DNA of 64,000 nucleotides from Candidatus Hydrogenedentota bacterium. Lineage in GTDB: Bacteria > Hydrogenedentota > Hydrogenedentia > Hydrogenedentales > SLHB01. A program made the translations under genes and the position numbers. The stretch lies in NCBI GenBank assembly GCA_963668025.2, contig CAXXTH010000017.1, positions 672,001-736,000 on the forward strand. The letters are read 5' to 3'. The notes under the pieces were generated by a model, which worked only from the letters and a program-made list of their open reading frames with translations, ran no database searches and was not told the origin of the DNA. This document shows, piece after piece, positions 6,559-32,128 of this stretch (positions are counted from its first letter, which is position 1; the number at the start of each line of letters is the position of its first letter).

Positions 6559-6619
6559 ACCAACTGGCGGATAGGGCAGCATCGCCTTTCGGGCGAGCCA
6601 TCCAAGAAGGAGAGTGAAC

Positions 6620-14204: not shown

Positions 14205-17200
14205 TTATGGCTGTTTCTCCGCTTCATGCAAACATTCATTCAGCCGCTGGGTGAGCACCTCGACATAGGGGGAGGCGAAAATCGCGGCATGGTTGCCGGG
14301 GATGGATATTTGGGTGACGCCGCCGTGTGCATAGTCGCGCCATCCGCAGGCCGTAGCTTCCATTATAGCCGCATAAGCGGGTTCGGGGGCCGTGTGCATC
14401 AGCGTGATGGAGCCGCCGTAAGGCTTTGGCTGGTAGGCGTTGTACTCGCGGGTGTTGGCCCGAAGAGTCGAGAAAACTTGGCGCGTCTCGGGTATGTCTA
14501 TCATCGACAGGCGCTCACTATTGGAGAGCGTGTCGGCCACATTCGCTTTGCGGCGCAGAATGCGGTATACGCCATCGAGCAAGGCCCAATTCAGAAAATC
14601 CCAGAATGCCATGCGATTGCCTTGGCCTTGCATACGCTTCTGTAGCACCTGTAGCATCATGTAAATCCCGTCGCGGATGTACGGTATGGAGTCGCGCGTG
14701 TAGGCGGCGGTGACGTGTAGTATGCGCCAGATTCGCCCGAGGCGTCCCAGTATGCCTCGAGGAGGCTGCATGATGTCATGCTTCAACACGGCATCAAACA
14801 GGATGAGGCTGTCCACGCGCTCGCCTTCGGCTTCGAGCTGGCGCGCCATTTCGAATGCCACGACGCCGCCATAAGACCAGCCCCCGAGAAAATACGGCCC
14901 GTGCGGCTGCACACGCCGCATCGCGGCGATGTAGTGCGTGGCCAGTTCCTCGATGCTGGATATGGATACGGGCTGGCTGCCCACGCGCGGATCTTGCAGG
15001 GCGTAGAAGGGCCTGCCCGGCTCGATATGCAAGGCCATGCCATAATAAGGAAACGCAACGCCAGTGGCGGGAGCGGCGCAGAAAAATGGGCGCTTGCCGC
15101 CTTCGGCGCGCAGGGGGACCAGCACCCCGCCTTCGACCACGGGAGCAGAATCAGGCGCATCCGGGCCGCCCGACAGTGACGCGGCGAGGCCTTCGACCGT
15201 GGGAGTCGAGAACAGCGCCTGGATGGATACTTCCATCCCCGTGGCTTCCTTGAGGCGGGACAGCAACTGTATGGCGGTGAGGGAATGCCCGCCTAACTCG
15301 AAATAATTATCATGCACGCCCACGCGCTCGACACCGAGGACTTCTTGCCATACACGCGCGATGGTTTCTTCCTCGGGCGTTCGCGGGGCCACATAGGCGC
15401 GCGTGGCGGCCAGAGGCTCATCGAGTTCGGGCAGCGCCCGCCGGTCCACTTTGCCGTTGGGCGTGAGGGGGATGCGTTCGATGGCCATGTAGCGGGCCGG
15501 AACCATGTGGTCCGGCAGGGCCGCGCGGAGATGGGCCGCCAAGTCTTGCGGCGCGGGCGCGCACCCTTCCGGTGCATAATAAGCGACAAGCTGTTTGCCG
15601 CCGCGCCCGTCGTCGCGTGCGTCCACCACGGCCTCGCGCACTTGCGGGTGGCTGGCCAGCACGGCCTCGATTTCACCTAGTTCGATGCGGTAGCCGCGCA
15701 CTTTTACTTGCGTGTCGATGCGGCCCAGGAACTCGATTTGGCCGTCGCTCCGGTATCGGACCAAGTCGCCCGTGCGGTACATGCGCGCGCCGGGCGTGTT
15801 CGAGAAGAGATCTGGCACAAAGGCTTTCGCGGTCAAGTCCGGGCGGTTCAAATAACCGCGCGCAAGGCCATATCCGGTGATGTGGAGTTCGCCCGGCACG
15901 CCGATGGGCGTGGGGCGGCCATGCGTATCGAGAATGTAGACGCGCACGTTGGACATGGGGCGTCCGATACTGGGTGCGCCATCGATGCCCGGTTCGAGAA
16001 TGCTGCCTGTCGCCATGACCGTATTTTCCGTGGGGCCATATAAATTCGCGAATTGGGATGGAAACGATTTGGGCGGATAGCGGTGGAGCGTGTCGCCGCC
16101 AGTATAGATAAACCGCATCGAAACCGAAGTGGGCCATTCCAGGCCGAGTATGCCTTCCGCGATGGAGGTCGGCAAGAAGCAACCTGTTAGCCGTTCCGAC
16201 AGGATCCAATCGCGCACGGCTTCATATGACGATAAGGAATTCAGATCCTGGACGTGCAGGCTGCCGCCCGCCGTGAGGGCCCACCACGTTTCATACGTTG
16301 CCGCATCGAATGCGGGGCCGGAGACGCAGGTCGAGCGGTCTTCAGGCGTACAGGCGAATGTCTCATGGTGCCACTGCAACAGATGCCGGAGCGGGCCGTG
16401 GTTAATCTCGACTCCCTTGGGCTGGCCCGTCGAGCCGCTGGTGTAAATGACATACGAGCGGTCCTCGGGGCCTATCGGAATATTCAGCTCCGAATCCGGC
16501 TCTTGGGCGAAGGCCGTCCATTCGGGGTCCACGGAGAACATGCGTACGCCGCTTCCCTCGAACTGGGCGGCGCATTCCGGCCCGGCCAGGAGCGCACGTG
16601 CGGCGGAATCCTCGAGCATAAAGGCGATACGGCTAGGGGGATAGGCGGGGTCGATGGCCACATAGGCCGCTCCGGCTTTCCATACCCCCAGCCACGCCAC
16701 AGGCAATTCCGGGCAGCGTTTCATACACACCGCCACGAGATCGCCGGGTTGCACGCCATGGCGGCGCAGCGTATGGGCGATCTGGTTCGCGCGGGCGTTC
16801 AGTTCGCCATAGGTGAGGCGGCGTCCGCGCCCTTCGATGGCCAGCGCCTCGGGGCGGGCCATGGCGTTGTCGCGCACCCAATCGGGCGGGCATGGCGCAT
16901 CAGGATATGTACGCTCCGTGGCGTTCCATTCGACCAGCACGCGGTGGCGTTCCGCTTCGGACAGCGTGGCAATGGTTCCCAAAGGCGCGTCTTCATTTGC
17001 GGCGATGTGTTCGAGCGCCGTGCGCCATTGTCCAAGAACGCGCTCCACTTCCGCTTCGCTGAAATAGCGGCGGTCGTATACCAGCCGGAGCAGAAGGGTT
17101 TGCCCGACGGCCACGGCGGTGAGGGGATAATTGGTGCGTTCATACATGCCGTGTTCGAGGAGCCGCAGATCGCCCATGCCATCTCGGAGGGAATCATCCA

Positions 17201-20200
17201 TGGGGTAATTCTCGAACACCAAAATACTGTCGAACAGGGATTTCGAGGCCGGGATTCCGCTCCAGCGCTGGATATGCGCCAGCGGGGCGAAATCAAACGC
17301 GCCCGATTCGATGGCGCGTTCATGCAGGGAGCGCAGCCACGCGGATGCCGGCTCGTCTTCCGGAATGGACACCCGCACGGGGATAGTGTTGATGAATAGG
17401 CCCACCATGGACTCGATGCCGGGAATTTCCGGTGGGCGGGAGGTCACGGTGGCTCCGAAAACGATATCGTCTTCATCGCTCCGGCGCGCCAGCACAAGCG
17501 CCCATGCGCCTTGGAGTATCGTATTGAGCGTGATGCGATGCCGCCGCGCCAAGGCATTCAACGATTCGCGCATTTCCGGCGGCAGCGTGGCCTGCATGTT
17601 TCCCCGCCCTGCGTCCGCACCCGCCGCGCCTGCGCGGTCCGCGCACAATGGCGTGGGATGGGTGAAACCATCCAATACGCCCCGCCAATACGATTCGGCG
17701 GCGGCGTGGTCTTGAGATTCGAGCCATGCAATATAATCGCCGTAAGGTGGAGCAGCAGAGCGCGCGCCCGCGCCGCCTTGGCGCATGGCTTCGTAATCAG
17801 CCAGCGTTTCCCGCAGCAGGACGGGCATGCTCCACCCGTCAATCAATAGATGGTGAGTGGTCCATACGAGCCGCCAGGCAGTGTCGCGCAGGTGCAGCAA
17901 GGTGAACCGGGTCAGCGGCGCGCGTTCGAGTGCAAACCCGCGTGCGCGGTCGGCCTCGATGAAGGATTCGAGGCGAGTAGCTTGTTCTATTTCGTCAACG
18001 CCGCGCCAGTCTTGCACGGTAAACTCGGGTTCGGCGCGGCGGAACACCACTTGGCGGGGTTCGCCCGCGCCTTCATACACAAAAGCCGTGCGCAGAATGG
18101 AATGGCGGGCGCAGGCGTTGCGCCAGGCTTGTTGGAATGCCGCCACATCAAGGACGCCGCTCAACAGGCCGTTCCACTGCTCGATGTACATGGCTTCCGA
18201 GGGAGCAAGAAGCGTGTGGAAGAGCATGCCTTCCTGCATGGGTGACAGGGGGTAGATATCTTCGATATCACGCGGGCCTGCCACGCCTTCAAAACGCGCG
18301 ATGAGGCGGTCGAGCTGTTCCACATCCAGGTGGGATCGAGGGAAATCGGAAGGCGTGCACCCCCCTGAAGCGGGGTCTTGGCAATGGGCGATCAAGGCGC
18401 GCAAGGCGTTCATGTAGTATTCGGCCCATTGCGCTATCGTTTCGGTGCGATGCAGGTTCTCACTATAGCTCCATTCCAATCCCAAGCGGCCATTGAGCAT
18501 CATGGCGTTAATGACGATGGCATGAGTCCGGCGGTTTCTCGGATCGTGCATCGGGCCGGCCGACTCATCCGCTAGAGACATCTGGGGCGCATCGAACTGG
18601 CCTAAGTAATTGAACGCCACATCTGGCTCGGGGGTTGAAGCGAGAGCGTCACGGTACGTGGATTCTTTACGGAGATACCGCAGCAATCCATATGGCGCGC
18701 CATGCCCTGGTATGTGGCGAAGCTGTTCTTTGATAGACTTGATGCGCTTTCCGAGGTTTGCGCCAGGCAACGTTTTCAGTAGGACAGGATACGCGGACGT
18801 GAACCAGCCCACCGTGCGCGAACAATCCGGCCCATCGGGCAAAACGTCGCGCCCATGGCCCTCGATAGTTAAGGAAACGGCCCGTGAACCTGTCCATGCG
18901 GTTAAGGTATCCGCCAACGCCGTGAGCAACAGATCATTAATCTGCGTGCGATACGCCCGTGAGATGTCCTGAAATAAAACGCGGTTCTCTTCGGGATTGA
19001 GGAAAACCAAATGCACTCGAGCCGAGGCTTCGGAATTCCCTCCCCCAGGAAAATCGAGTGGAAGGAGCGCGGCCTGTTTCCAGGAGGCATCCAGCCAATA
19101 TGCAGCGCAAGCAGCCACTGTCTCGGACTCGGCGTATTCGGCCAAGGCGTCCGCCCAACATTTATACGAGGCTGTTTTCGAAGGGAGCACAATTGCCCGG
19201 CCTTCCCGGACTTGGGCGTATGCGGATTGCAGATCCTCGATCAGGATACGCCAAGAGACGCCATCCACAACCAAGTGATGCGCCGCCAGCAGCAGCCGCG
19301 AAGAGCGTTCCGCGCCAAGGTTCATGTATAACGCCCGGAACATGGGGCCGCGTGTGATATGAAGGGTTGCTTGGAACGCGGAAGCGGCAGCCTCGATGGC
19401 GGCGGGCAGGCGTTCGGAATCCCATTCCGATAAATCGCACGTTTCCAGCAAGCCATCGAATGAAGGCTCCGCATATGACTGGACCCATCCATCCACGGAT
19501 GGCGCATACCTCAGCCGCAAGGCGTCGTGATGCTCGACCAAGGCCTGCAATGCTTTTTGCAATGCTTCCGATTCAAATCTCTCCCGAATCTCAATCAGGG
19601 GCGCTTGGTTCCAATAATGCTGTGTTTGGGCGTCCGCGCCCGGGCCTTCGAAGAACCAGCGCTGGATAGGCGTCAGCGGGACGGTTCCCGATGCGAGGCC
19701 CTGTTCCGCGGCGGGCAGCGCTTCGCGCCCGCCCATGGCCGCGGCGAGGCCCGCCACCGTCTGATGCTGAAAAAACAACTTGGGCGTGATGGCCAGCCCG
19801 GTTTGATTGGCCCGGGCCACGACCTGAATGCTCAAAATTGAATCGCCGCCCAGCTCGAAGAAGTTGTCGCGCCTTCCCACACGCTCGACGCCGAGCACTT
19901 CGCGCCAGATGCCCGCGAGACGCTCCTCGGCGGCATTGCGCGGGGCTTCGTAGGCATCGGATTCGCGTGCGTCATAATCGGGGGCAGGCAGCGCGCGGCG
20001 GTCAATCTTGCCGCTTGCCATTAGCGGCATGGCGTCGAGAAAGACGAAGTGCGCGGGAATCATATACGTGGGCAGGCTCGATTCGAGAAACGCACGCAAA
20101 ACCAGCACATCGAGCGGCGCGCCCTTTGATACGGCATACGCCACGAGACGCTTGCCGCCGGATGCGTCCTCGAGCGCCACGACGGCGGCTTCGCGCACGT

Positions 20201-23012
20201 CCGGATGGCGCTGCAACGCCGTTTCGATTTCGCCCAATTCGATGCGGAACCCACGTATTTTGACTTGGAAGTCCGCGCGCCCGGTGAATTCAATCTGCCC
20301 ATCCGGCAGGAAGCGCACCACGTCGCCGCTTCGGTAGAGCCGTGCGCCTGGGGCGTCTGAGAACGGATGAGGCACGAAGCGTTCCGCAGTGAGTTCGGGC
20401 CGGTTCAAATATCCTCGTGCGAGATTCGCGCCGCCGAGATAGAGTTCGCCCGGCACGCCCATCGGAACGGGCTGCATCTGGGCATCGAGGATGTACGCCT
20501 GTGTGTTGGCGATGGGGCGTCCGATGGTGGGCGCGCCATGGGTGGCTCCGGGTGGAAGATCGAGGTACGTCGAGACAATGGTGTTTTCCGTCGGCCCGTA
20601 ATTGTTGCCCACATGGGCGCGGAATGAGGAGGGCGGTCCGAAATGGAGCTTGTCGCCCCCCGTGAGCAAGAGGCGCAAAGCGGCGTGCGGAGGCCATTCG
20701 GCCACGAGGGCTTGTTCGGCCATGACCGACGGCATCGTGGCGATCGTGAGGCGCTCGCGCGCAATCCAGTCGATCAAGTCCGGCAAGGAAGTGCGAAGCG
20801 TCTCGGGCATTATCACCAGCGACGCGCCCGCGCACAACGTGGGCCAGATCTCCGACGCCGAGGCGTCGAACGTCATGCTAATGAACTGCGTTTGCCGTTC
20901 GCCCGGGGCAAGGCCGTAGGTTTCAATGGCCCAATGCACGAGATTGAGCAGGCCGCCATGTTCGACTTCGACGCCCTTCGGGACGCCCGTCGAACCGGAA
21001 GTGTAGATGACATACGCGCGGTTGGACGGCGACAGTGCGGCGCCTATATTTCCGGCGCTTTCACCCTCGAAGGCGGACCAGTCCGGCCCGAAGCGCACTA
21101 GGGGGCCGCATCCCGCAGGGAGTTCCACCGAGACGCCTTCGTATGCGAGCACCACGGCGGGGCGGGCATCCTCAAGTATCGTCTGAATGCGGCCCGGCGG
21201 GTACGCCGGGTCGATGGGCACATAGGCTCCGCCCGCTTTGAAAATCGCCAGGTACGCTACGATTAAGTCGGCGGAGCGCGGCGCGCATACCGCCGCCAGG
21301 GATTCCGGCCCCACGCCGAGGCGCAGTAAATGATGGGCCAATTGGTTGGCCCGTGCGTTCAGTTCCCGGTATGTGATGCGGCGGCCTTCGTCCGCCAAGG
21401 CTTCGGCGTCCGGCATGGACAGGGCGAGGGCTTCGATGCAGCCAGGAACGAGCGGCGTAGTGGAATACGGCTTGGCCGTTTGATTCCATTCCACCATGAT
21501 GCGCCGCCATTCGGCATCCGGCAATAGCGGCAGCCGCGCGATGGAGCAATCGGGGTCCGTGGCGGCGGCTTCGAGCAGGCGCATGAAATGCCCCGCCATT
21601 CGCGCGATCGTGTCTTCGCGGAACAAGTCAGAATTGTATTCGATATGGGCGTTGAGGTGATCCTCGAATTGCACGAGCGAAAGGCTCAAGTCGAATTTGG
21701 TGGTCGAGCGCTCTTGGGCCATGGTTTCGAGCGCAAGCCCCGCGAAGCGCATGGGGGGCAGCGCCATGTTTTGCAGCACGAACATGGCCTGGAACAAGGG
21801 CGGATGGGCAGGCTCGCGCGGGATGCGCAGATGATCCACCAGCGTCTCGAAAGGCGTATCCTGGTGGGCGAACGCGCCGAGGGCGGTTTCGCGCGCGCGG
21901 GCCACGAGAGCGCGGAACGTCGGTTCGCCTGATATGTCCATGCGCAGCGGCAGCACATTCACGAAGAAGCCGATCAATTGCTCCGTTCCGGGCCGGGTGC
22001 GGCCTGCGACGGGAGAGCCCACCACGATGTCGTCTTGGCGCGAATAGCGGTGGAGCAGCACGTTGAACGCGGAAAGCAAGGTCATGAACAGTGTCACGTG
22101 TTCGCTACGGCTGAAGGCTTTCAACTGCTCCACGAGGGGGGCGTCCACCTGGAAGCGGTGCGCCGCTCCCGCGAAAGATTGGGCTTGGGGGCGGGGAAAA
22201 TCCGTGGGCAGTTCGAGCAGCGGCGGTGCGCCTTTGAGCTGTTCCCGCCAATACTCGATTTGTTCGCTGATTTCCTGTCCCGAAATATGGCGGCGCTGCC
22301 ATTGGGCGAAATCGGCGTACTGGCTGGCTAGCGGGGCATCCAACGCCTCGCGGCCCGCCGTGAAGGCCTCGTAGTACCGCGCCAATTCCTGCACCAGCAC
22401 GACCAGCGACGAACCGTCCGAAATGATATGGTGCAAGGTGACAAAAAGCCCATATGCCGCTTCGCCGGTTTGCACAAGCGTAAAACGGACTAAGGGGCCT
22501 TTGGCCAGATCAAATGGGCGGGACGCCTCTTCGCGTGCGAGGCGGCGCAGGCGTTCCTGCCGCTCGATTTCGGGTAATTCACGGATATCCAGATATGCCA
22601 GGGGCACATCCAAGGAGGGATGAATGAGCTGGGCCGGCTCGCCGCCCACGTCGATAAAGGTCGTGCGCAGGGCTTCATGGCGCGCGGCTACGCGCTGGAT
22701 ACTCGATGACAAGGCGTCCCGGTGGACACGCCCGCTGACCTGAAGGGCAATCGGCGTGCTATAGGCCGTGCCGATGGACTCGAATTGTTCGAGAAACCAG
22801 AGGCCGCGCTGGGCGAAAGACGCGGGGGCCACTTTGTAGCCGCCTGCGAGAAAATCGAGCAATTCCGGTTTGTTTTCGGCCAGCGCCTTGCGCAATGGCC
22901 CACTGAGCGCGCCTTCGGGCGCACGAAAACACAAGCCGCCCGCATCGGTCCATAACTGCACATTTTGGCGTATCACTTCTCCCAGCACGCTGGGAATCGC
23001 GGCGACAGTCAT
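14205..23012 (-). CDS. Two-module NRPS: betaHD(TubC-N)-C-A-PCP-E-C-A-PCP-TE
   Basis: HHIISDG (C1), YTSGSTG x2 (A), GGDSI (PCP before E), HHLVVDGVSW (E), HHLLIDGWS (C2), GGHSL (PCP), GWSYGG (TE); start reassigned to ATG 23012 with AAGGAAG RBS. Confidence 0.95.
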   Translation of the reverse strand: MTVAAIPSVLGEVIRQNVQLWTDAGGLCFRAPEGALSGPLRKALAENKPELLDFLAGGYKVAPASFAQRGLWFLEQFESIGTAYSTPIALQVSGRVHRDALSSSIQRVAARHEALRTTFIDVGGEPAQLIHPSLDVPLAYLDIRELPEIERQERLRRLAREEASRPFDLAKGPLVRFTLVQTGEAAYGLFVTLHHIISDGSSLVVLVQELARYYEAFTAGREALDAPLASQYADFAQWQRRHISGQEISEQIEYWREQLKGAPPLLELPTDFPRPQAQSFAGAAHRFQVDAPLVEQLKAFSRSEHVTLFMTLLSAFNVLLHRYSRQDDIVVGSPVAGRTRPGTEQLIGFFVNVLPLRMDISGEPTFRALVARARETALGAFAHQDTPFETLVDHLRIPREPAHPPLFQAMFVLQNMALPPMRFAGLALETMAQERSTTKFDLSLSLVQFEDHLNAHIEYNSDLFREDTIARMAGHFMRLLEAAATDPDCSIARLPLLPDAEWRRIMVEWNQTAKPYSTTPLVPGCIEALALSMPDAEALADEGRRITYRELNARANQLAHHLLRLGVGPESLAAVCAPRSADLIVAYLAIFKAGGAYVPIDPAYPPGRIQTILEDARPAVVLAYEGVSVELPAGCGPLVRFGPDWSAFEGESAGNIGAALSPSNRAYVIYTSGSTGVPKGVEVEHGGLLNLVHWAIETYGLAPGERQTQFISMTFDASASEIWPTLCAGASLVIMPETLRTSLPDLIDWIARERLTIATMPSVMAEQALVAEWPPHAALRLLLTGGDKLHFGPPSSFRAHVGNNYGPTENTIVSTYLDLPPGATHGAPTIGRPIANTQAYILDAQMQPVPMGVPGELYLGGANLARGYLNRPELTAERFVPHPFSDAPGARLYRSGDVVRFLPDGQIEFTGRADFQVKIRGFRIELGEIETALQRHPDVREAAVVALEDASGGKRLVAYAVSKGAPLDVLVLRAFLESSLPTYMIPAHFVFLDAMPLMASGKIDRRALPAPDYDARESDAYEAPRNAAEERLAGIWREVLGVERVGRRDNFFELGGDSILSIQVVARANQTGLAITPKLFFQHQTVAGLAAAMGGREALPAAEQGLASGTVPLTPIQRWFFEGPGADAQTQHYWNQAPLIEIRERFESEALQKALQALVEHHDALRLRYAPSVDGWVQSYAEPSFDGLLETCDLSEWDSERLPAAIEAAASAFQATLHITRGPMFRALYMNLGAERSSRLLLAAHHLVVDGVSWRILIEDLQSAYAQVREGRAIVLPSKTASYKCWADALAEYAESETVAACAAYWLDASWKQAALLPLDFPGGGNSEASARVHLVFLNPEENRVLFQDISRAYRTQINDLLLTALADTLTAWTGSRAVSLTIEGHGRDVLPDGPDCSRTVGWFTSAYPVLLKTLPGANLGKRIKSIKEQLRHIPGHGAPYGLLRYLRKESTYRDALASTPEPDVAFNYLGQFDAPQMSLADESAGPMHDPRNRRTHAIVINAMMLNGRLGLEWSYSENLHRTETIAQWAEYYMNALRALIAHCQDPASGGCTPSDFPRSHLDVEQLDRLIARFEGVAGPRDIEDIYPLSPMQEGMLFHTLLAPSEAMYIEQWNGLLSGVLDVAAFQQAWRNACARHSILRTAFVYEGAGEPRQVVFRRAEPEFTVQDWRGVDEIEQATRLESFIEADRARGFALERAPLTRFTLLHLRDTAWRLVWTTHHLLIDGWSMPVLLRETLADYEAMRQGGAGARSAAPPYGDYIAWLESQDHAAAESYWRGVLDGFTHPTPLCADRAGAAGADAGRGNMQATLPPEMRESLNALARRHRITLNTILQGAWALVLARRSDEDDIVFGATVTSRPPEIPGIESMVGLFINTIPVRVSIPEDEPASAWLRSLHERAIESGAFDFAPLAHIQRWSGIPASKSLFDSILVFENYPMDDSLRDGMGDLRLLEHGMYERTNYPLTAVAVGQTLLLRLVYDRRYFSEAEVERVLGQWRTALEHIAANEDAPLGTIATLSEAERHRVLVEWNATERTYPDAPCPPDWVRDNAMARPEALAIEGRGRRLTYGELNARANQIAHTLRRHGVQPGDLVAVCMKRCPELPVAWLGVWKAGAAYVAIDPAYPPSRIAFMLEDSAARALLAGPECAAQFEGSGVRMFSVDPEWTAFAQEPDSELNIPIGPEDRSYVIYTSGSTGQPKGVEINHGPLRHLLQWHHETFACTPEDRSTCVSGPAFDAATYETWWALTAGGSLHVQDLNSLSSYEAVRDWILSERLTGCFLPTSIAEGILGLEWPTSVSMRFIYTGGDTLHRYPPKSFPSQFANLYGPTENTVMATGSILEPGIDGAPSIGRPMSNVRVYILDTHGRPTPIGVPGELHITGYGLARGYLNRPDLTAKAFVPDLFSNTPGARMYRTGDLVRYRSDGQIEFLGRIDTQVKVRGYRIELGEIEAVLASHPQVREAVVDARDDGRGGKQLVAYYAPEGCAPAPQDLAAHLRAALPDHMVPARYMAIERIPLTPNGKVDRRALPELDEPLAATRAYVAPRTPEEETIARVWQEVLGVERVGVHDNYFELGGHSLTAIQLLSRLKEATGMEVSIQALFSTPTVEGLAASLSGGPDAPDSAPVVEGGVLVPLRAEGGKRPFFCAAPATGVAFPYYGMALHIEPGRPFYALQDPRVGSQPVSISSIEELATHYIAAMRRVQPHGPYFLGGWSYGGVVAFEMARQLEAEGERVDSLILFDAVLKHDIMQPPRGILGRLGRIWRILHVTAAYTRDSIPYIRDGIYMMLQVLQKRMQGQGNRMAFWDFLNWALLDGVYRILRRKANVADTLSNSERLSMIDIPETRQVFSTLRANTREYNAYQPKPYGGSITLMHTAPEPAYAAIMEATACGWRDYAHGGVTQISIPGNHAAIFASPYVEVLTQRLNECLHEAEKQP

Positions 23013-23115
23013 TGTAAACTTCCTTGCCTGCCCCAGATGAACCAGAGCCAACTGCCGATATATTGGAAACCGCGAATGGATGCCAATAAACTTATCGCAG
23101 TATAGCTGCAATTAA

Positions 23116-23690
23116 AGATCCGGATTTGGGGACCACGAAACACACGAAATACACTAAACTTTTGTAGGGCGGGGCTGGCCCCGCCACTTAAAAGATACGC
23201 TCAAACAAAATTTTACTCAGGTTTTTACACGGATATATGGAAACATATAGATTTACGGAGTAAAACATCCGAGTATTCATCATGTGGTGAAAGCGTCATA
23301 AAAGAAACAATCTTGTTTATTCTTTTTCGCCGACCTTGAATTGAGCCATTTTCAACGCAAGGCGCAGAGGCGCGGAGAACGCAAAGTATCGCAGAGATCC
23401 ACTTTTCTCTATTCTCGAATGTGCGAATAAGCGGTTCGAGAGTATTTTCTCTACTTTGCGGATCTCTGCGTTCTCCGCGCCTCTGCGTTGATAATAACCG
23501 TCCACCGGCCGTTCTTCACCACTGGGCTAAATTGTTACAATGTTTTTTCGTGCAGCGGAATTGCCATTAACGAATCTTGTCCATCTTGTAAATCATGTCG
23601 AAAAAAAATCTCCTCTTCACGGAGGTTTGCCATGTATTCGTGCCATGTATTTACGTTTATTCGAATCCATTCGCGGTTCAAGAATCGGCC
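23116..23690. repeat. Mosaic of short dispersed repeats in the NRPS-TEII gap (REP-like, MITE-end-like, AACGCA..GCGCAGAG inverted pair)
   Basis: Copy of the 9506 repeat; inverted pair 23354-23384 / 23463-23489; segments shared with 49475-49510 and 49588-49605; ATTCG..TCCATTCGCGGT shared with 62808-62837. Confidence 0.7.
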
Positions 23691-23788
23691 CGGTGCTTGA
23701 AAGGGCAAATACCGGAACAGAAGCTCGGTTCGTCGTACGGCCATTTGCTCCCCTGGAGCGAATGTCGTAAGAGAACCGGCATGCGGAT

Positions 23789-24577
23789 TCAAGCGACGTT
23801 CCGGGCCTCCTGGGCCAATATGCGCGCAAGCGTCCATAAGAGTAATTGGGGGCGTTCGAGCAGGTAGAAATGGTCGCCGGGGAACATATGCTTGTCAAAT
23901 GCCGCGCAAGTTTGTTCGGACCAAGCCCGAATGCTCTGTTCCGGCACCATGGAATCTTGCAGGCCGCCTAATGCCGTGATTGGGCACTCGAGGGGCGCTT
24001 CGTCCGTATACGAATAGGTTTCACACACCTCGAAATCGGCCCGTAACACAGGCAACAGCAATTCGAGCCATTCTTCATGTTGCAACGCTTCTTCGGGCGT
24101 GCCGTTGTAGCCGCGCACGCATTCGAGGAAAGTCTCGTCGGGCAAGCCGTGTATGGGCGGGCCTGGATACGGCAGTTGCGGCGCGGAATGGCCGGATACC
24201 AGCAGCCGCATAGGTAATGACGCGCCTTGGCGGCGCAGATGCCGCGCCAGCTCGAAACCGATCAATGCACCCATGCTGTGCCCGAAAAAAATGAACGGTT
24301 TATCTAAAAATGGCTCGATAGTTCGCGCGAGGGAGTCGACCAGCGGGGCCATGCGCGTGAAAGGCGCTTCATGGGCTTGCCCGCAGCGCCCGGGAAGCTG
24401 CATGCAGCAAAGCTCGATGGACTCGGGCAGATGCTCCGCCCATGGCCGGAAAACAGAAGGATTGCCCCCTGCGTGGTGGAAGCAGAAAAGACGCATGGCC
24501 GCCGACGGATTCGGCTTGACCATGCTCCCTGGCTGGCTAATCCACTGCGAAGACTTCATGCGTTTCCTTTTCGGCAC
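23789..24577 (-). CDS. Type II (editing) thioesterase
   Basis: LFCFHHAGG, QLPGR, GHSMG, LRADF, PGDHFY motifs. Confidence 0.92.
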   Translation of the reverse strand: MPKRKRMKSSQWISQPGSMVKPNPSAAMRLFCFHHAGGNPSVFRPWAEHLPESIELCCMQLPGRCGQAHEAPFTRMAPLVDSLARTIEPFLDKPFIFFGHSMGALIGFELARHLRRQGASLPMRLLVSGHSAPQLPYPGPPIHGLPDETFLECVRGYNGTPEEALQHEEWLELLLPVLRADFEVCETYSYTDEAPLECPITALGGLQDSMVPEQSIRAWSEQTCAAFDKHMFPGDHFYLLERPQLLLWTLARILAQEARNVA

Positions 24578-24638
24578 ACCGCTTCTAGCCTGCTAGGCTT
24601 GGCGACGCGCCATCCTCGTTTCAACGTTGGCGCAATTA

Positions 24639-27600
24639 TTATATGCGCCCTTCCTCGAATACTTCCGTTTCCGTGGGATGCACCCTAGCATCCGCTTCGG
24701 CGGGAAGCTCATAACCTAATTCCACCGCAATCTGGCGGGCAGCTTCTCCCAGCGGATTCGGCAGATGAATACGCCGCCACGCTTCGCCCAAGCCGCCTTC
24801 GATGCGGCTGCGCGCGAGAAAGTTTGGATCGCCAATACCTAGCGACGATTCCTTGACGCCGTCGGTCATTCGTTTCCCATTATACGGTTCCAGCACCGCT
24901 GGATCGAATAAAATATCTAAAAAGCCGCATACTCGGCGCATCACTATTTCGGGAGCGCTCACGAGTTCTTCATATTTCACAAGCAAACAACGTTCTTTAC
25001 CGACACTTCGTCCAAATTCGAGGAGGTTTCGGTTGCTGCGAACCCATACTTCTTCCGCGAGTGCATAGGGATCCACCCCGCCCGCTCCGATCAATTTGTC
25101 GAAACGGTTTCGCACAAATGACTCTATCACCGCATACGGGTGCCGCGCCAGATGTATATATCGAGCCCCCTCGAACCACATCTCCGCCCGCAAGAGCGTA
25201 CCCTGTTCTACCGCGTACGACGGTGATTTGTCCAATAACAGTTTTGGGGCCGCCGCTTCCAGAAGGAGGCGGTACATTTCCCATGTGGGCTGCTCCGCCG
25301 CCACCTGCTCGGATACGAGTGCTTCGGCGGATGCCAGGGCGCGGCCGTCCAACTCCATCAGCGCCCGCTGAAGGCCTTCTCCAAGATAGCTCAAACCCAG
25401 TGCTTCTTGCCGTTCGCTCATGGTCGCGAAGGGCAGCAAATGCAATTCCGGCGGGCAAAATAGCCCGGGATGCCCCGCCAGCATGACGCGCATGAGCGTC
25501 GAACCCGAACGTGGGCTCGATAGCAAGAACGCCGCACCTGGAAGCCGCCGTGGCGGAGCTTCATCTGGCGTGCCGCCGCCCCGCACCCAGCGGGCCAGCG
25601 ATTCGCTGTCAATGGCTCCCGAGGATGCGCCGCCCCGGCCTTCGGCGCGCTCTAGTTCTTCCGATAAATAAGCCGCCAGCTCGGCGACAACGGGGCGCTC
25701 GAAGACTTCGCGCGGATGCACGCGGAATCGCAGATCGTGCTCGAGTGTCCGCACAATCTCCATAACCATAATAGAGTCAAGGCCCAACTCGAGCACGTTT
25801 TGCTCATCGGGTATCGCGGAACCCGCCATACCCAATACGCGGGCCAGTTGCACCCGAATATAACCCCGAAGGAGGGCGATTCGTTCCATTGGAGCCGCCG
25901 TGCGAATAGCTTGCGGGCTGGGGCCTTCTTCTTCCAGCACCGGCGCGGATAGAAGGCTGTCCAAAAATCCCGAATCCGCCAGCGCATGGCTTGCATGGGC
26001 CAGTTTTTCCCAATCGGCGCGAAAAACGCATACATGCGTCCAGTCGGCTTCGAGGGCGCGCCAGAGCGCCGCCATGGCTTCTTGGGGCGGAAGGCCGGTG
26101 ACGCCCCGGCGTTCGAGCTGGGCGTTCATGCCCGTCTCGACGGCCATGCCCACTTCGGACCATGGCCCCCAATTCATCGCCAAAGCGTGCAGGCCTTGGG
26201 CGCGCCGCCATTGGACAAAGGCGTCGAGCCAGGCGTTGGCCGCCGCGTAATTGCCTTGTCCCGGCGAACCCAGGAGCGAAGCGGCGGATGAATATACGAT
26301 GAAGAAATCGAGGGGCTGGCCCTGAAATAGCTGATGGAGCGCCCATGCCCCCGCAGCCTTGGGCTTGATCACGGACGCCAGCGACGCGGCGTCCAGATGA
26401 AGCAGGAGCTTGTCGTCTAGAATCCCCGCGCCGTGCAACACACCGGCGATGGGCGGGGCTGGGGCCTGGAGGAAGCCCGCATGCCACGCGCGTAGCGCTT
26501 CGAGTTCCGACACATCCACTGAGGCCGTATACACGGTTGCGCCTAGGGCTTCGATGCTCCGGACCGCCGCCACGCGCAATCCGTCCCGGCTATTCGGCTC
26601 CAAGGCGTTCCACGCTTCGCGCGGGGGGAGAGGCGTGCGCCCGAGTAAAATAATATGCCGTGCGCCTTGTTCCGCCAGGCCGCGCGCCGCTTCGAGGCCC
26701 AAACCGCCCAATCCGCCGGTGATGAGATAGCTGGCGTCCGGGCGTATCCGCATCGGCGGCATGGGAGCATTGGACGTTTGTTTACGGGCCAAACGCGCTT
26801 CATACCGCACCGCGCCGCGCCAGGCGGCTTGCCGTGCGCCGGGGGCGTTCATGGATTCGCGCCATAATGCTTCCACTTCCGGCGGTGCGCTCATCGGATC
26901 GAGGTCAACGAGCACCGGCCCGAATTCGGGATGCTCCTGCATGACCACCCGTCCCAGCCCCCATAATAGCGATTGCGCCAGCGCCGGCGACTCCAAGCTA
27001 TCCGCGACGGCTTGCGCGCCGCGCGTCACGATCATCAGGCGCGCATCGGTCACGATGGGGCGCGTCAGCAGGGCTTGGAGCAGATAGACCAGGCCCTCCG
27101 CCGCCGTGTGGTGCGCAAAACCCTCGGAATGCGCATCGAGGCCCCACGCATAAAGCACGGCGCATGCGGCGGCATCGCCGAGTGCCTTGTCGAGCAATTG
27201 CCGGTATTGCATGGGGGAGGCGGACGCAAGCTCCGCGCGTTCGCCCTGATACGTAAATGCAGCGCCGGGATAGGCCACGACACATCGCCCGCCCGCCGCG
27301 CGCGCTTGCGCCGCGAATGCCTCCGCCACGCCAGACGCATCGGCGAAAATCAACCAGGGCGCTTCGGTGAGGAAAGCGCCGTTCCCTGCGGACGCGCCGG
27401 TTTGTTTCCATTGCAATTCATATAACAGCCCATCCACATCGAGCGCCGCCTTCGGCGGTGGTGTGGCTTGCCGGGCGGCGGTGCGCGCCTGCCCATCGGC
27501 GATCCAATAGCGTTGCCGTTGGAAGGGATACGTGGGCAGCGCCATGCGGCGTCCTGGGCGAGCCTGCTCGAAGGCCGCCCAATCCACGGGCGCGCCTTGC

Positions 27601-30404
27601 ACATATAGCGCCGCCAGCGAAGGCAGCAAGGATTCCCAATCGCCGCGTCCTTGTTTGAGCGATGGCAGCCAGGAAGCCGTGTTTTCTGGCAGACAACGGC
27701 GGCCCATCGGAAGCAACGCGGGCGTAGGGCCGATTTCGAGATAGGTGTCTATACCCGATGCGGCAAGCGATTCAATACCCGCCTGGAAGCGCACGGCGGC
27801 CCGGGCGTGACGCCGCCAATACGCGGCGTCGAGGACGGTTCCCGGCGGCAGCAGCGTCCCATCCACATTGGACGCCAGCGGCATCGTGAGCGGGTGATAC
27901 GCCACGCGCTGGGCGAACGACTCGAAGGCGTCCAGCATAGGTTCGATGCAGCGGGAATGGAAGGCGTGCGACACATCCAGGCTTTTCGTGCGTATCGCAC
28001 GCACTTTGGCTTCCTGCAACACGGCTTCTAGCGCGTCCGAACGCCCGGAAATGACGGTGAGGTCCGGGGCGTTCACGCCCGCGATGGACATATCCGCCCC
28101 ATGGGGTGCGAGCAATTCGGCGGCGGCATCTTCGCTGGCATACACCACGGCCATGCCGCCTTCGCGGGGCAAGGCGTCCATCAGCCGGGCGCGTTCCGCC
28201 ACGAGGCGCAGGCCGTCTTCTAATGAAAACGCCCCCGCCACGCAGGCCGCCAAATATTCGCCCAAGCTGTGTCCAAGCGCCGCCACGGGCTGGACGCCCC
28301 AGGCGAGTCCGCATTGGGCCAGGGCGTATTCGAGGGCGAACAACGCGGGCTGCGCCCAAGCAGTCTGGCTAATAATCGAGGGGTCTGGGCATGCGCCGAA
28401 CAGCACATCCCGCAGCAGCAGGGTCCGATGCGGGCGCAAGATTTCTTCGCACTGCGCGATGATTTGGCGGAACCGGGGCTCGGTTTCGTACAACTGCCGC
28501 CCCATGCCCGCGTATTGCGCGCCTTGCCCCGTGAACAGAAATGCGATATGGCGCGAATGGGCGTCCGTACGCGCCATCGTGCGCGCATCCGTCTCGCCAC
28601 ACGCCAGGGCTTCGAGGCGCTGGGCAAGGGCCGCCATGTCTTCACCGGGCGCGAGCAATAGCGCCGCACGGCGTTCATGGTGCGTGCGCCCCGCCGCGAC
28701 GGTATGGCAAACGTCGCGCGCGCTTATATCGGGATGCTGTTTAAAATATCGGGCGTAGACGCGTGCGAGGGCGTTCAACGCGGGTTCGGTCTTCGCGGAA
28801 AGAAGCAACACCTCGCTGGGCCGGGCAGGCAAAACCTCCTTCACGGTCGTTTCGGGCGCTTCCTCGATGATGACATGAGCGTTCGAGCCGCCGAATCCGA
28901 AAGCGCTCACGCCCGCGCGGCGGGGCTTTTCGCTCTTGGGCCATGCGGCGGCTTCTGAAGAAACCGCTAATCCGGCGCCGAGTGCAATTAAGGGATTAAT
29001 GTCCTTAAAATGTAGATGCGCGGGAATAAGTTCGTGTTGCATCGCGAGCACGGTTTTGATGAGGCCCGCCATGCCCGCCGCGGATTCGAGGTGCCCGATA
29101 TTGGTTTTCACGGACCCGACGAGGCAAGGCTTGCCAGGCGCGCGCCCTTCGGCATACACGCGCTGGATCGATTCCATCTCGATGGGATCACCCAGCGAGG
29201 TGCCCGTACCGTGGGCTTCTATGTACTCCACGTCCGAAGCGTCCACGCCCGCGCGCGCGAGGGCGTCGCGCATGACGGATTGCTGCGCCGCGCCATTGGG
29301 GGCAGTCAGGCCATTGGTGCGCCCGTCGTGGTTGACCGCCGCACCGCGAATGATCGCCGCGATGGGATCACCATCGGCGAGGGCGTCGCGCAGGCGTTTC
29401 AACACCACCACGCCACAGCCTTCCGAGCGCACATAGCCGTTTGCGCTGGCGTCGAAGGTTTTGCATCGGCCATCTGGGGCGAGCATGCCCGCCTCGGAAA
29501 AGGCGATGGTGATATCCGGCGTCAGGATCAGGTTGACGCCCGCCGCCAAGGCGCAATCCGCATCGCCGTAGCGCAGGCTTTGACAGGCCTGATGCACCGC
29601 CGCGAGCGAAGCCGAACAGGCCGTATCAAGGGCCACGCTGGGGCCATGCAAATCGAGCAAATAGGACAGCCGGTTCGCCGCGATGCTGAAGGCGCTGCCC
29701 GTGGACGTATAGACGCTCAACGGCCCGCCGCCAAATTGGAATTGAGAGTAATCGCTGCTGCTGATGCCCACGAAAACCCCCGTGCGCGAGCCCGCCAGCT
29801 TGGTGGCTGGAATGCCGGCGTCTTCGAGGGCCGCCCAGGCCGTCTCGAGCAGGATGCGCTGTTGCGGGTCCATGGCCGTGGCTTCGCGGGGGGATATGCC
29901 GAAAAAAGCGGCGTCGAATTGGTCCACGCCGTCCAAATATCCACCGAAACGGGTGCAGGTTTTGCCGGGCGTTCCCGGTTTTGGGTCATAGAGCGCATCG
30001 GCGTCCCAACGGTCCGGGGGCGTTTCACGGATGGCGTCACGGCCGCCGCATAACAGCTCCCAGAATTCTTGAGGGGAAGAAGCGCCGGGGAACCGGCAGC
30101 CTATGCCAATGATGGCGATGGCGTCCTCGATGGCCCCGTTACTGGAAGCGGAATGGGCGGATGATTCCGCTTCACCGGCGAGATGGGCGGCCAGCGCGGC
30201 TACCGAAGGATAATTGTATACGATGGTAGGCGACAAGCTGCGGTCCAGCAAATCCTCGAGGTCGCCTGATAACGTTACGGCGTCGCGTGACGACAAGCCA
30301 TAGCTCTCGAAGGGGGCGCCGGGATCGATGGCTTCAGGGGGAATGTCCAGTTCGGATGCAATCTGGGCGGTGAGCCATGCCTGGATGTCTGCTTTGCTCT
30401 TCAC
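24639..30404 (-). CDS. Type I PKS: ACP-KS-AT-KR-ACP-sulfotransferase (Ols/CurM-like, no fused TE)
   Basis: GLSS ACP; KS DTACS/HGTGT/NIGH; AT GHSLG + HAFH (malonyl); KR TGGLGGLG, LDD, YAAAN; ACP GLDS; PAPS loop SPRSGSTL; ends FEEGRI. Confidence 0.93.
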   Translation of the reverse strand: MKSKADIQAWLTAQIASELDIPPEAIDPGAPFESYGLSSRDAVTLSGDLEDLLDRSLSPTIVYNYPSVAALAAHLAGEAESSAHSASSNGAIEDAIAIIGIGCRFPGASSPQEFWELLCGGRDAIRETPPDRWDADALYDPKPGTPGKTCTRFGGYLDGVDQFDAAFFGISPREATAMDPQQRILLETAWAALEDAGIPATKLAGSRTGVFVGISSSDYSQFQFGGGPLSVYTSTGSAFSIAANRLSYLLDLHGPSVALDTACSASLAAVHQACQSLRYGDADCALAAGVNLILTPDITIAFSEAGMLAPDGRCKTFDASANGYVRSEGCGVVVLKRLRDALADGDPIAAIIRGAAVNHDGRTNGLTAPNGAAQQSVMRDALARAGVDASDVEYIEAHGTGTSLGDPIEMESIQRVYAEGRAPGKPCLVGSVKTNIGHLESAAGMAGLIKTVLAMQHELIPAHLHFKDINPLIALGAGLAVSSEAAAWPKSEKPRRAGVSAFGFGGSNAHVIIEEAPETTVKEVLPARPSEVLLLSAKTEPALNALARVYARYFKQHPDISARDVCHTVAAGRTHHERRAALLLAPGEDMAALAQRLEALACGETDARTMARTDAHSRHIAFLFTGQGAQYAGMGRQLYETEPRFRQIIAQCEEILRPHRTLLLRDVLFGACPDPSIISQTAWAQPALFALEYALAQCGLAWGVQPVAALGHSLGEYLAACVAGAFSLEDGLRLVAERARLMDALPREGGMAVVYASEDAAAELLAPHGADMSIAGVNAPDLTVISGRSDALEAVLQEAKVRAIRTKSLDVSHAFHSRCIEPMLDAFESFAQRVAYHPLTMPLASNVDGTLLPPGTVLDAAYWRRHARAAVRFQAGIESLAASGIDTYLEIGPTPALLPMGRRCLPENTASWLPSLKQGRGDWESLLPSLAALYVQGAPVDWAAFEQARPGRRMALPTYPFQRQRYWIADGQARTAARQATPPPKAALDVDGLLYELQWKQTGASAGNGAFLTEAPWLIFADASGVAEAFAAQARAAGGRCVVAYPGAAFTYQGERAELASASPMQYRQLLDKALGDAAACAVLYAWGLDAHSEGFAHHTAAEGLVYLLQALLTRPIVTDARLMIVTRGAQAVADSLESPALAQSLLWGLGRVVMQEHPEFGPVLVDLDPMSAPPEVEALWRESMNAPGARQAAWRGAVRYEARLARKQTSNAPMPPMRIRPDASYLITGGLGGLGLEAARGLAEQGARHIILLGRTPLPPREAWNALEPNSRDGLRVAAVRSIEALGATVYTASVDVSELEALRAWHAGFLQAPAPPIAGVLHGAGILDDKLLLHLDAASLASVIKPKAAGAWALHQLFQGQPLDFFIVYSSAASLLGSPGQGNYAAANAWLDAFVQWRRAQGLHALAMNWGPWSEVGMAVETGMNAQLERRGVTGLPPQEAMAALWRALEADWTHVCVFRADWEKLAHASHALADSGFLDSLLSAPVLEEEGPSPQAIRTAAPMERIALLRGYIRVQLARVLGMAGSAIPDEQNVLELGLDSIMVMEIVRTLEHDLRFRVHPREVFERPVVAELAAYLSEELERAEGRGGASSGAIDSESLARWVRGGGTPDEAPPRRLPGAAFLLSSPRSGSTLMRVMLAGHPGLFCPPELHLLPFATMSERQEALGLSYLGEGLQRALMELDGRALASAEALVSEQVAAEQPTWEMYRLLLEAAAPKLLLDKSPSYAVEQGTLLRAEMWFEGARYIHLARHPYAVIESFVRNRFDKLIGAGGVDPYALAEEVWVRSNRNLLEFGRSVGKERCLLVKYEELVSAPEIVMRRVCGFLDILFDPAVLEPYNGKRMTDGVKESSLGIGDPNFLARSRIEGGLGEAWRRIHLPNPLGEAARQIAVELGYELPAEADARVHPTETEVFEEGRI

Positions 30405-32128
30405 GTCGCCGCCCGGACTCCTTCCAATGCTCCCGATAGATATAGCGCCTTGCAGGCGCGCCGCTGGAGTTTGCCACTGGTGGTCATGGGGACGCTGCCC
30501 GTTTTCACGAGCACGATGTCATGAACATGCAGTTCATGAACTTGATTTACTGCCGTGCGGACCGCGCGTTCGACTTCCTCCGCGTTCAGGTTGCGCAAAT
30601 AAGGCAAGGCGACTTCCTGTATGATGACGAGCAGTTCCTGGCCGTCTTCTTCGATGGAGAAGGCGGTTCCTATCGCGCCCTCGAGGGCGGGGTGGCTTTG
30701 GGAGGAGGTTAATTCGATGTCTTGCGGATAATGGTTCACGCCATCAATAATGATGAGATCCTTGATGCGCCCCGCTACAAAGAGCTCGCCGTCGTGCATA
30801 AAGCCCAGATCGCCGGAGCGAAGATAGGGGCCTTCGCCCGTATCGGAGATATAGGTGTTGACGACGCGGGCCGATTCTTCCGGCGCTTCCCAATAACTGG
30901 ACATCACACACGGCCCGGCCACCCAAATCTCGCCTACGCGCCCCTCGGGGCAGCGCGCCAAGGTTTCCGGGTCCACGATGGCCAGTTTCGTTTCGGGCGA
31001 TGGCTGCCCGGAACCGGCATGGATGCGCCCCGTTCCTGGCGCGGCAAGGACGACTTCCCGGCGCGTGAGGGCTTCGGGATCGACTTCGAGCCCCACGGGG
31101 CGTTTCGGCCCGCCACCCGCGACAAACAGCGTAGCTTCGGCCAGCCCGTAGCAGGGCAAAAACGCCTCCTTGCGGAATCCGCATGGAGCGAATTTCTCGG
31201 AGAATCGCTCGATGGTGCTGTATTGCACCGGCTCCGCGCCATTGAACGCCACTTTCCACGAGCTGAGGTCGAGCTCCTTGAGTTGCTCGGGCTTGACTTT
31301 GCGCACGCAGAGGTCATACGAGAAATTCGGCCCGCCGCCGGTGCGCCCTTGATAGCGAGTAATGGCCCGCAGCCAGCGTATCGGGCGCTGCAAAAACGCC
31401 AAAGGCGACATGACCACGCCAAAAGAACCGAGATACATGGGCTGCAAAATATTCCCGATAAGGCCCATATCGTGGTAATAAGGCGTCCAACTGATGACCG
31501 AGGATTCTTCGGTGTGCTGGAAGGCCTGTTGGATCATCACCTGGTTATGCAGAATGTTGCCATGGGTGACTTGCACGCCCTTCGGGAAGGCGGTCGAGCC
31601 GGAAGTATATTGTAGAAACGCCAGCGTATCTGGTTCCGAGCAGGGGTCTTCCCATGGCTCGTCCGGCAGGCTGTCCACATCTTCCATGAACAACCATTCG
31701 AGGCCGGCGGCCATACCAGTCTCTTCACGCAAGGGAATGAGCCGCTCAAAAATGCCGTGTTCCGTAAGGGCGAAGCGCGCCCGGGAATTGTTCAGGATAT
31801 TTTGCAATCGAGGCATGGTGCGGTTGTTATGGGGCGGGCACACGGGCACCGCCACCACGCCGCCATATAAACATCCGAAGAATGCGAGGATGAAGTTCAG
31901 TCCCGGTGTGAACAGGAGCACGGCCCGTTCACCATGGCCGCCCCGGCGGGCCAATTCCGCTCCGAGCGCCCGGGCGCGCCGGTCCAGTTCGGCATAGGTT
32001 AACCGGCTTTCATCTTGTTCGCCATCATTCAAAAATATATACGCTATTTGATCCGGCTGATGGAGCACCCGCTCGCGCAATAATTCGACAAGCGTACGGT
32101 ATCCGACCTGCCGCCGAGAATCCATCAT
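30401..32128 (-). CDS. Fatty acyl-AMP ligase (FAAL)
   Basis: LQYTSGST, HDMGLIG, CYGLAEATL, FAAL insertion, SGDLGF, TTSGKLQR; GTGA overlap with PKS start. Confidence 0.92.
   Translation of the reverse strand: MMDSRRQVGYRTLVELLRERVLHQPDQIAYIFLNDGEQDESRLTYAELDRRARALGAELARRGGHGERAVLLFTPGLNFILAFFGCLYGGVVAVPVCPPHNNRTMPRLQNILNNSRARFALTEHGIFERLIPLREETGMAAGLEWLFMEDVDSLPDEPWEDPCSEPDTLAFLQYTSGSTAFPKGVQVTHGNILHNQVMIQQAFQHTEESSVISWTPYYHDMGLIGNILQPMYLGSFGVVMSPLAFLQRPIRWLRAITRYQGRTGGGPNFSYDLCVRKVKPEQLKELDLSSWKVAFNGAEPVQYSTIERFSEKFAPCGFRKEAFLPCYGLAEATLFVAGGGPKRPVGLEVDPEALTRREVVLAAPGTGRIHAGSGQPSPETKLAIVDPETLARCPEGRVGEIWVAGPCVMSSYWEAPEESARVVNTYISDTGEGPYLRSGDLGFMHDGELFVAGRIKDLIIIDGVNHYPQDIELTSSQSHPALEGAIGTAFSIEEDGQELLVIIQEVALPYLRNLNAEEVERAVRTAVNQVHELHVHDIVLVKTGSVPMTTSGKLQRRACKALYLSGALEGVRAAT

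Follow-up and report, generated by a model that had tools for sequence, protein, structure and literature searches.

The window analysed here is a 64-kb stretch of DNA from a Candidatus Hydrogenedentota bacterium (assembly GCA_963668025.2, contig CAXXTH010000017.1, positions 672,001 to 736,000), and our subject is the junction between two of its proteins: a polyketide synthase (PKS) of type I that ends in a sulfotransferase (ST) domain and a short tail, and a nonribosomal peptide synthetase (NRPS) that begins with a docking domain. Coordinates are positions in the window, and the docking-related genes all lie on the minus strand. The PKS (24639-30404, 1921 residues) reads in translation and Pfam matches as ACP-KS-AT-KR-ACP-ST (acyl carrier protein, ketosynthase, acyltransferase, ketoreductase) followed by a 17-residue tail, and its Pfam domain order includes no thioesterase (TE) in cis. 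Its start is overlapped by the stop of a gene for a 575-residue fatty acyl-AMP ligase (FAAL; 30401-32128), which has Pfam AMP-binding and AMP-dom_DIP2-like matches and whose best NCBIfam matches are fatty-acid--AMP ligase families, each scoring under its curated cut-off. The second carrier of the PKS, ACP2 (residues 1516-1580, 25665-25859, placed on the best stretch of the Pfam PP-binding match), must bring the chain to the KR, to the ST and then to the first condensation domain of the NRPS.

The NRPS (14205-23012, 2935 residues) has the Pfam order bHD-C-A-T-E-C-A-T-TE (β-hairpin docking domain, condensation, adenylation, thiolation, epimerization). A whole-genome profile search gave three Condensation-family matches, all within this open reading frame (ORF); the middle one contains the motif HHLVVDGVSW, and we take it on that basis to be an E domain. 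Translation most likely starts at the ATG at 23012, a few bases downstream of a purine-rich AAGGAAG, although the open frame extends upstream to a TTG at 23111. The protein opens MTVAAIPSVLGEVIRQNVQLWTDAGGLCFRAPEGALSGPLRKALAENKPELLDFL, and its first condensation domain, C1 (residues 61-505 by Pfam Condensation, 21498-22832), would take the PKS-bound acyl chain.

The end of the PKS is a sulfotransferase fold with a short, apparently disordered extension. Searched against the PDB with phmmer, the last 333 residues match the Ols ST (4GOX, E 7.5e-96) and the CurM ST (4GBM, E 2.6e-93), to both of which the domain (residues about 1613-1904, 24693-25568) is about 55% identical. The alignment runs up to ...GYELPAEA, leaving 17 residues past the fold: a variable linker, DARVHPTETEV (residues 1905-1915, 24660-24692), placed by alignment and predicted by AlphaFold2 (AF2) to be disordered, and the conserved six-residue motif FEEGRI (residues 1916-1921, 24642-24659), our proposed docking peptide. 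The protein thus ends ...HPTETEVFEEGRI, with its stop codon at 24639-24641. In an AF2 model of the ST and tail built on 12 orthologues, most ten-residue blocks between 31 and 310 in the ST core have pLDDT 80-98, while the last 18 PKS residues fall below 50 and take up no secondary structure, which in this model is as expected for a disordered short linear motif (SLiM). An ST homologous to those of CurM and Ols and placed after KR-ACP is a trait of terminal-alkene modules, and it is present; the accompanying trait, a TE fused in cis directly after the ST, is absent, as the stop codon falls 17 residues past the ST fold, so the PKS is not a member of the CurM/Ols ST-TE kind. The genome contains an APS kinase gene. 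The KR has an LDD motif, from which the hydroxyl configuration is presumably the same as in CurM.

At the other side of the junction, the first residues of the NRPS form a docking domain of the TubC_N type. PF18563 matches residues 9-55 (E 1.4e-11, 44.8 bits against a cut-off of 26), and the isolated N-terminal 71 residues score 52.2 bits. The domain spans residues 1-55 (22848-23012), and C1 begins at residue 61, leaving a short linker to the acceptor domain. AF2 models it with pLDDT 86.3 and the order alpha-beta-beta-alpha-alpha (helix 5-15, strands 19-23 and 26-30, helices 38-46 and 48-54), in which the β-hairpin (residues 19-30, QLWTDAGGLCFR, 22923-22958) is placed by gapless hidden Markov model (HMM) alignment to the N-terminal docking domain (NDD) of Kj12B. 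When this model was searched with Foldseek, ranks 1-10 were all solved β-hairpin docking domains (TMq 0.62-0.72; TubC 2JUG, 0.46), and EpoB superposed with an rmsd of 0.8 Å over 52 columns. A profile of 12 orthologous docking domains likewise found the solved structures of AerJ (8AQQ, E 3e-12), TubC (2JUG, E 5e-10), Bamb_5915 (6CGO, E 3e-9), EpoB (5T7Z, E 8e-8), the Kj12B NDD (6EWT, E 2e-5), and the Kj12C NDD with its complex (6EWU and 6EWV, E 3e-4). Both halves of the junction had been named in the original prediction, made from the sequence alone, and both were correctly placed: the stop and last eight residues of the PKS do occupy 24639-24665, with FEEGRI inside them, and the region given for a TubC-N domain (22850-23012) coincides with the docking domain that the HMM search recovered.

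Neither partner has an obvious competitor. Apart from this docking domain, no TubC_N match in the genome (6.1 Mb, 93.75% complete) rises above the cut-off, and the next two reach 14.1 and 13.0 bits. A type I PKS ketosynthase occurs once, in our PKS, the second KS match being a 422-residue frame of FabF size, and there is one NRPS ORF by Condensation profile search. With one NRPS, one type I PKS and one TubC_N domain, the genome offers no alternative docking partner. The tail motif is also rare: of the 20,922 stop-to-stop frames in the same genome that reach 100 residues or more, the strict form [FILMV][EV]E[GEDS][RS][LI], derived from a set that includes our own sequence, closes one, and a looser form closes six.

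The same pairing recurs across the phylum. We searched 135 genomes of the phylum with the ST and tail, after a first pass on 41 relatives, and obtained, at E<=1e-40, 32 ST matches from 25 genomes, 30 of these matches having loci. Fourteen of the 30 stop 17-20 residues past the ST fold with a common tail, [FILM]-[E/V]-E-[G/E/D/S]-[R/S]-[L/I]-stop, shared by every one of the phylum's 14 ST-terminated PKS loci, with the endings VFEEGRI (the window), IEEGRL, LEEERL, FEEERL, MEEDSL, FEESRL, MVEERL and MEEERL. Another 14, classed by the length of the ORF past the ST and an end containing ...PGNH..., run on for about 300 residues in the same ORF to a thioesterase-like end and have no tail, as in CurM and Ols; in one further locus (L009) the ST is fused to a C domain through a Gly/Ser/Glu-rich linker. 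The remaining locus, L033, whose ORF continues for at least 490 residues past the ST, was left unclassified, as were the two ST matches without loci (G023:C617 and G112:C396). An NRPS ORF opening with a docking-domain-like sequence and a C domain lies downstream in 14/14 tailed loci, which come from eight genera in three families, and its start codon overlaps the PKS stop in all 11 relatives for which coordinates were computed. The three downstream NRPSs scanned in full all have TubC_N above cut-off. In the tail alignment, mean pairwise identity is 0.45 at the end of the ST fold, 0.18 in the linker and 0.67 in the last six residues, and conservation of the motif beyond so variable a linker argues for selection on the motif itself. 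What follows the junction is less constant: the NRPS has three modules in G005 (L056), one in G040 (L058) and in G114 (L059), and two, together with an E domain, in the window, so that the junction is conserved while the peptide part varies. Four of the ST-TE relatives (L013, L028, L030 and L035) have, right after the PKS stop, a further ORF with a thioesterase-like start (...PFF/YLCAPAGGV...GGWSFGAMVALEMA...) similar to the opening of the TE region in the window NRPS.

The residues expected to touch can be compared with those of a solved complex. In the Kj12 pair of the rhabdopeptide NRPS, as described in PMC6195595, Kj12B binds through no more than its last five residues (L-R-G-E-I), which lie as a strand along β2 of the docking domain, with a Kd of about 15 µM; two salt bridges form, E28-R(-3) and R24-E(-1), Gly(-2) packs on Y27, and a hydrophobic pocket takes up the terminal Ile. 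The profile of our docking domain aligns without gaps to the Kj12 NDDs, so that Kj12 positions 24, 27 and 28 correspond to G26, F29 and R30, the latter two within strand β2 (LCFR). Across 12 orthologous pairs of tail and docking domain, the equivalent of E28-R(-3) is invariant, with R30 in 12/12 domains and E(-3) in 12/12 tails. At the equivalent of R24-E(-1), Glu or Asp occupies column 26 in 9/12 domains (the others being Gly in the window, Gln in L010 and Arg in L015) and Arg occupies (-1) in 11/12 tails; L015, which alone lacks R(-1) and has Ser there, is also alone in having Arg at column 26. For Y27-G(-2), F29 stands with G(-2) in the window, L010 and L022, Phe stands with Ser in L036, and Leu at column 29 pairs with E(-2) in 6/6. 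The C-terminal Ile or Leu is retained. To judge from these alignments, the contact residues fit the published rules as complementary sets with both charge pairs inverted, and reversed salt-bridge polarity occurs in other docking systems (PMC6195595). For the window, we predict contacts of R30 with E(-3) and F29 with G(-2), and a pocketed Ile(0). Complex prediction from alignments of the docking domain (70 residues) and tail (40 residues) scored 0.15 and 0.17, the mark being 0.32, was run without controls, and is evidence neither way.

Single polypeptides can also carry an ST flanked by a carrier and the next C domain. A database search with the ST region, followed by Pfam scans of the proteins, recovered carrier-ST-C fusions in P0006 (KS-AT...ACP-ST-C-A-T-TE), P0058 (ACP-ST-C-A-T-TE) and, from the same phylum, L009 (ACP-ST-C), and an ST-C-A-T protein in P0098; forms with the ST followed in cis by C are L009, P0006, P0058, P0098, L044, L045, L047 and L050. 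Window C1 is 42-49% identical to the C domains that follow the ST in cis in P0098, L050, P0007, P0006 and L045, and 36-45% to C1 of its split relatives; the figure is 29% for C3 of the same NRPS, and 25% for the C domains of both L009 and P0058. A scan of genome contigs covering 13 loci gave seven T-ST-C, one ST-C, four ST-TE and one stand-alone ST; it showed no further split ST-SLiM/bHD locus outside the phylum, with patterns taken from this single protein, so that distant forms may be missed. Judged from these domain orders, an ST placed behind a carrier and ahead of a C domain is a recurrent architecture, and the window holds its split form.

Several other arrangements came from the same searches. 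Seven of the 13 contig loci (L045-L050 and L052, all Acidobacteriota) are NRPSs with A-T-ST-C modules in one ORF and a CurM-like ST, which suggests mid-line sulfation of a carrier-bound amino acid, an activity of which we know no characterised example. P0008 and P0009 are NRPSs with two ST domains (A-T-ST-C-A-T-ST-TE), one mid-line and one before the terminal TE. Five further PKSs end after the ST without a TE (P0020, P0021, P0073, P0015 and P0101): a long basic tail is found at the end of three, two of these with ...SERGELTIQ, and the end of P0015 differs; P0101, of 1924 residues and with the order ACP-KS-AT-KR-ACP-ST, ends ...FSDFEDVTL, which is acidic and SLiM-like.

Between the PKS and NRPS genes of the window, which are not adjacent, lie a gene for a stand-alone type II (editing) thioesterase (TEII; 23789-24577, 262 residues, Pfam Thioesterase 2.2e-48) and a 776-bp intergenic spacer (23013-23788). 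The TEII is of the RifR/RedJ type, with PDB matches to RifR (3FLA, 4e-45) and 3QMW (5e-45); we considered whether it might be a CurM-type TE and rejected this, the CurM TE not being among those matches. It occurs at this position in our genome only; 13/13 relatives lack it there and have the NRPS gene directly after the PKS gene. The spacer, recognised from genome self-matches as dispersed repeats, matches the genome at 60 further places, with identities of up to 93%, and contains two pairs of inverted repeats (23363-23396/23454-23487 and 23068-23094/23652-23678). It looks like insertions of the miniature inverted-repeat transposable element (MITE) or repetitive extragenic palindrome (REP) type into a once compact operon, and is outside the docking logic. 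About 4-7 kb beyond the NRPS end are genes for an MMPL/RND-type transporter (6614-9457) and a LolA-like protein (9615-10415), which may serve as lipopeptide exporters.

The pair has the sequence and fold features of the SLiM/bHD class. We consider it highly likely, on the comparative sequence evidence above, that the FEEGRI tail and the NRPS docking domain are a cognate SLiM/bHD pair joining a PKS of one module, primed by the FAAL, to an NRPS of two, and the two proteins very probably act together as a single line. The original prediction, that the chain passes from the ST-bearing PKS to the NRPS, has strong support in the 14/14 loci with both tail and bHD-C NRPS, in the complementary contact residues and in the carrier-ST-C fusions. 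Its further view, that a SLiM parted from its ACP by a whole tailoring domain is an unusual geometry, was right in that the arrangement is uncommon, but was overstated, since SLiMs are reported at the C-termini of oxidase and heterocyclisation (Cy) domains and after the E domain of TxlA (PMC9113145).

In the sequence of events that we propose, the FAAL would load a fatty acid on ACP1, the KS and AT would extend it by one malonyl unit, and the KR would reduce the product to a 3-hydroxyacyl-ACP2. The CurM/Ols-like ST would then sulfonate the 3-hydroxyl with PAPS, before transfer. The last five or six residues of the disordered tail would join the hairpin of the docking domain as a third strand, and this docking would keep the ACP2-ST end of the PKS beside C1, so that ACP2 could pass the acyl chain, in its 3-sulfooxy form or as something derived from that, to C1, which would condense it with the first amino acid. 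The E domain, C2/A2 and release by the TE would follow, yielding an N-acyl dipeptide: an N-(3-sulfooxyacyl) dipeptide, or a derivative formed after loss of the sulfate. Because the ST is the last domain of its subunit and is followed by a conserved docking pair leading to a C domain, a sulfated (or sulfate-activated) intermediate would have to travel on.

Six points weigh against this interpretation. The window docking domain has Gly (G26) at the equivalent of Kj12C R24, so that one of the two salt bridges is without an obvious partner. The tail has a hydrophobic residue at (-5) and Glu at (-4), where Kj12B has its hydrophobic residue, which leaves the strand's register uncertain at its N-terminal end. 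The 14 loci are kin, six of them in one genus, and the covariation therefore rests on few independent events. The Foldseek E-values of the small docking-domain model are 0.009-0.3, none at or below 0.001, although the order of the matches and the rmsd still carry information. In the window, as opposed to its relatives, the PKS and NRPS genes are split by the TEII gene and 776 bp. Finally, the FR-901375 system can do without its SLiM in vivo (PMC13324335), so a conserved SLiM need not be the main determinant of docking.

This last point leads to the more serious rival, in which the docking domain would act mainly by grasping ACP2 (or the ST), with FEEGRI adding little and possibly dispensable. 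In FR-901375 the docking domain is required and contacts the globular ACP, whereas the SLiM is dispensable in vivo and has a modest effect in vitro (PMC13324335), and the window domain is without an acidic residue at the position meant to pair with R(-1). In the other direction stand the identity of the last six residues across eight genera, far above that of the linker (0.67 against 0.18), which argues for selection on the motif, and the invariance of E(-3) and R30 in 12/12 pairs. Moreover, about 290 ST residues stand between ACP2 and the end of the subunit, where a tether would seem more useful than it is with an ACP-adjacent SLiM. We regard this grasping mechanism as unlikely, but take it more seriously than a split olefin synthase, in which KR-ACP-ST and the stand-alone TE would make a terminal alkene, the NRPS would be independent and use another acyl donor, and the likeness of tail and docking domain to known pairs would be irrelevant.

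The split olefin synthase draws on the resemblance of the ST to those of Ols and CurM, on the thioesterase gene that follows the PKS, and on a FAAL and an ACP-KS-AT-KR-ACP-ST order shared with Ols-type proteins, the majority of the ST-region matches listed. That thioesterase is nevertheless of the RifR/RedJ editing type and is missing from all 13 relatives, in which the NRPS gene comes directly next; true ST-TE forms in the phylum (14 loci) are single ORFs without a tail, and carrier-ST-C fusions exist, all of which makes an alkene-forming split very improbable. Chance, by which the tail would be no more than how an ST-terminated protein happens to end, with a TubC_N domain that serves another purpose or is vestigial, is hardly credible: short acidic C-termini are common, and the loose motif closes six frames of the genome, but the strict motif closes only this one, tail and bHD-C gene occur together in 14/14 loci, and the genome has no other docking domain or megasynthase.

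We suggest that the cognate pair is of less interest for the docking itself than for the chemistry that it implies, namely a CurM-type ST used in-line and non-terminally, rather than as an ST-TE alkene former. As judged by title and abstract, a full-text literature search for ST domains in PKSs and NRPSs returned no ST-terminated PKS docking to an NRPS, and the sole in-line ST precedent was the cyanopeptolin synthetase OciA. The sulfate is reportedly kept in the cyanopeptolin product. The characterised PKS ST domains known to us, CurM and Ols, are all paired with a TE, the chain being released as a terminal alkene. If the handoff operates as proposed, this poorly studied phylum should make a family of acyl peptides that are sulfated or sulfate-derived, and the handoff would be a natural case of a docking peptide acting across an inserted tailoring domain; the ST-SLiM/bHD-C junction might in turn be a portable part for engineering.

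A broader reading joins these observations, and we offer it as a speculation that is more probably wrong than right. The ST-SLiM/bHD-C junction would mark a phylum-wide, combinatorial and so far uncharacterised lipopeptide family, in which a conserved FAAL-PKS-ST unit builds a 3-sulfooxy fatty acyl group for NRPSs of one to three modules, and the sulfate, instead of simply staying on, would be a leaving group for chemistry at the NRPS stage, for instance an elimination that yields an enoyl amide or a ring closed by the newly formed amide nitrogen. Acidobacteriota would have the amino-acid counterpart in their cis T-ST-C modules, which might sulfate Ser or Thr and then eliminate. If true, the use of sulfate as a leaving group would extend the 'activating sulfation' of CurM from chain release to mid-line tailoring.

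Among known systems, CurM and Ols (4GBM, 4GOX) share with the window PKS an ST homologue placed after KR-ACP and, for the Ols type, FAAL-primed single extension. In contrast to their KR-ACP-ST-TE order, the window PKS lacks a TE in cis, and its sulfated intermediate would be passed on rather than hydrolysed and decarboxylated. A likeness in architecture is offered by the Planktothrix cyanopeptolin synthetase OciA, which combines an in-line ST with glyceric-acid loading domains and modifies an N-terminal acyl cap, as the window system would; its ST lies within the NRPS polypeptide, without a split junction or docking pair (available text of PMC2533009).

For the docking itself, TubB/TubC, EpoA/EpoB and Bamb_5917/Bamb_5915 resemble the window pair in that a TubC_N-family domain before a C or Cy domain takes the chain from a carrier on another subunit, and window β2 is close to the Bamb_5915 sequence ELSFRAPKGAL. 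In those three pairs the SLiM sits directly on the ACP or peptidyl carrier protein (PCP), unlike that of the window (PMC13324335). DepC/DepD and PcdC/PcdK, from lines that make depsipeptide HDAC inhibitors, also use a SLiM and docking domain to join a conserved acyl-building PKS to variable peptide machinery, but with other chemistry and with a SLiM that follows the ACP and is largely dispensable (PMC13324335). Kj12B/Kj12C (6EWV) is alike in its contacts, with Gly on an aromatic residue, two charge pairs and a C-terminal Ile, the counterparts here being our F29/G(-2), R30/E(-3) and Ile(0) (PMC6195595). It differs in that our charge pairs are inverted, with Gly at the second partner and the hydrophobic residue at (-5) instead of (-4), and in that our junction runs from PKS to NRPS with the SLiM after an ST, while the Kj12 SLiM follows a T domain (PMC6195595). 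The SLiMs of TxlA and of the oxidase and Cy domains are similar in layout, as in each the docking peptide is parted from its carrier by a whole catalytic domain (PMC9113145). The ST does not appear among the post-domain SLiMs listed in the available part of that source, although the supplements of the underlying survey (Kosol et al., 2019) might list ST-SLiM cases. Measured against these descriptions, the docking system of the window is itself known, and its SLiM after an ST is a new domain context and not a new geometry.

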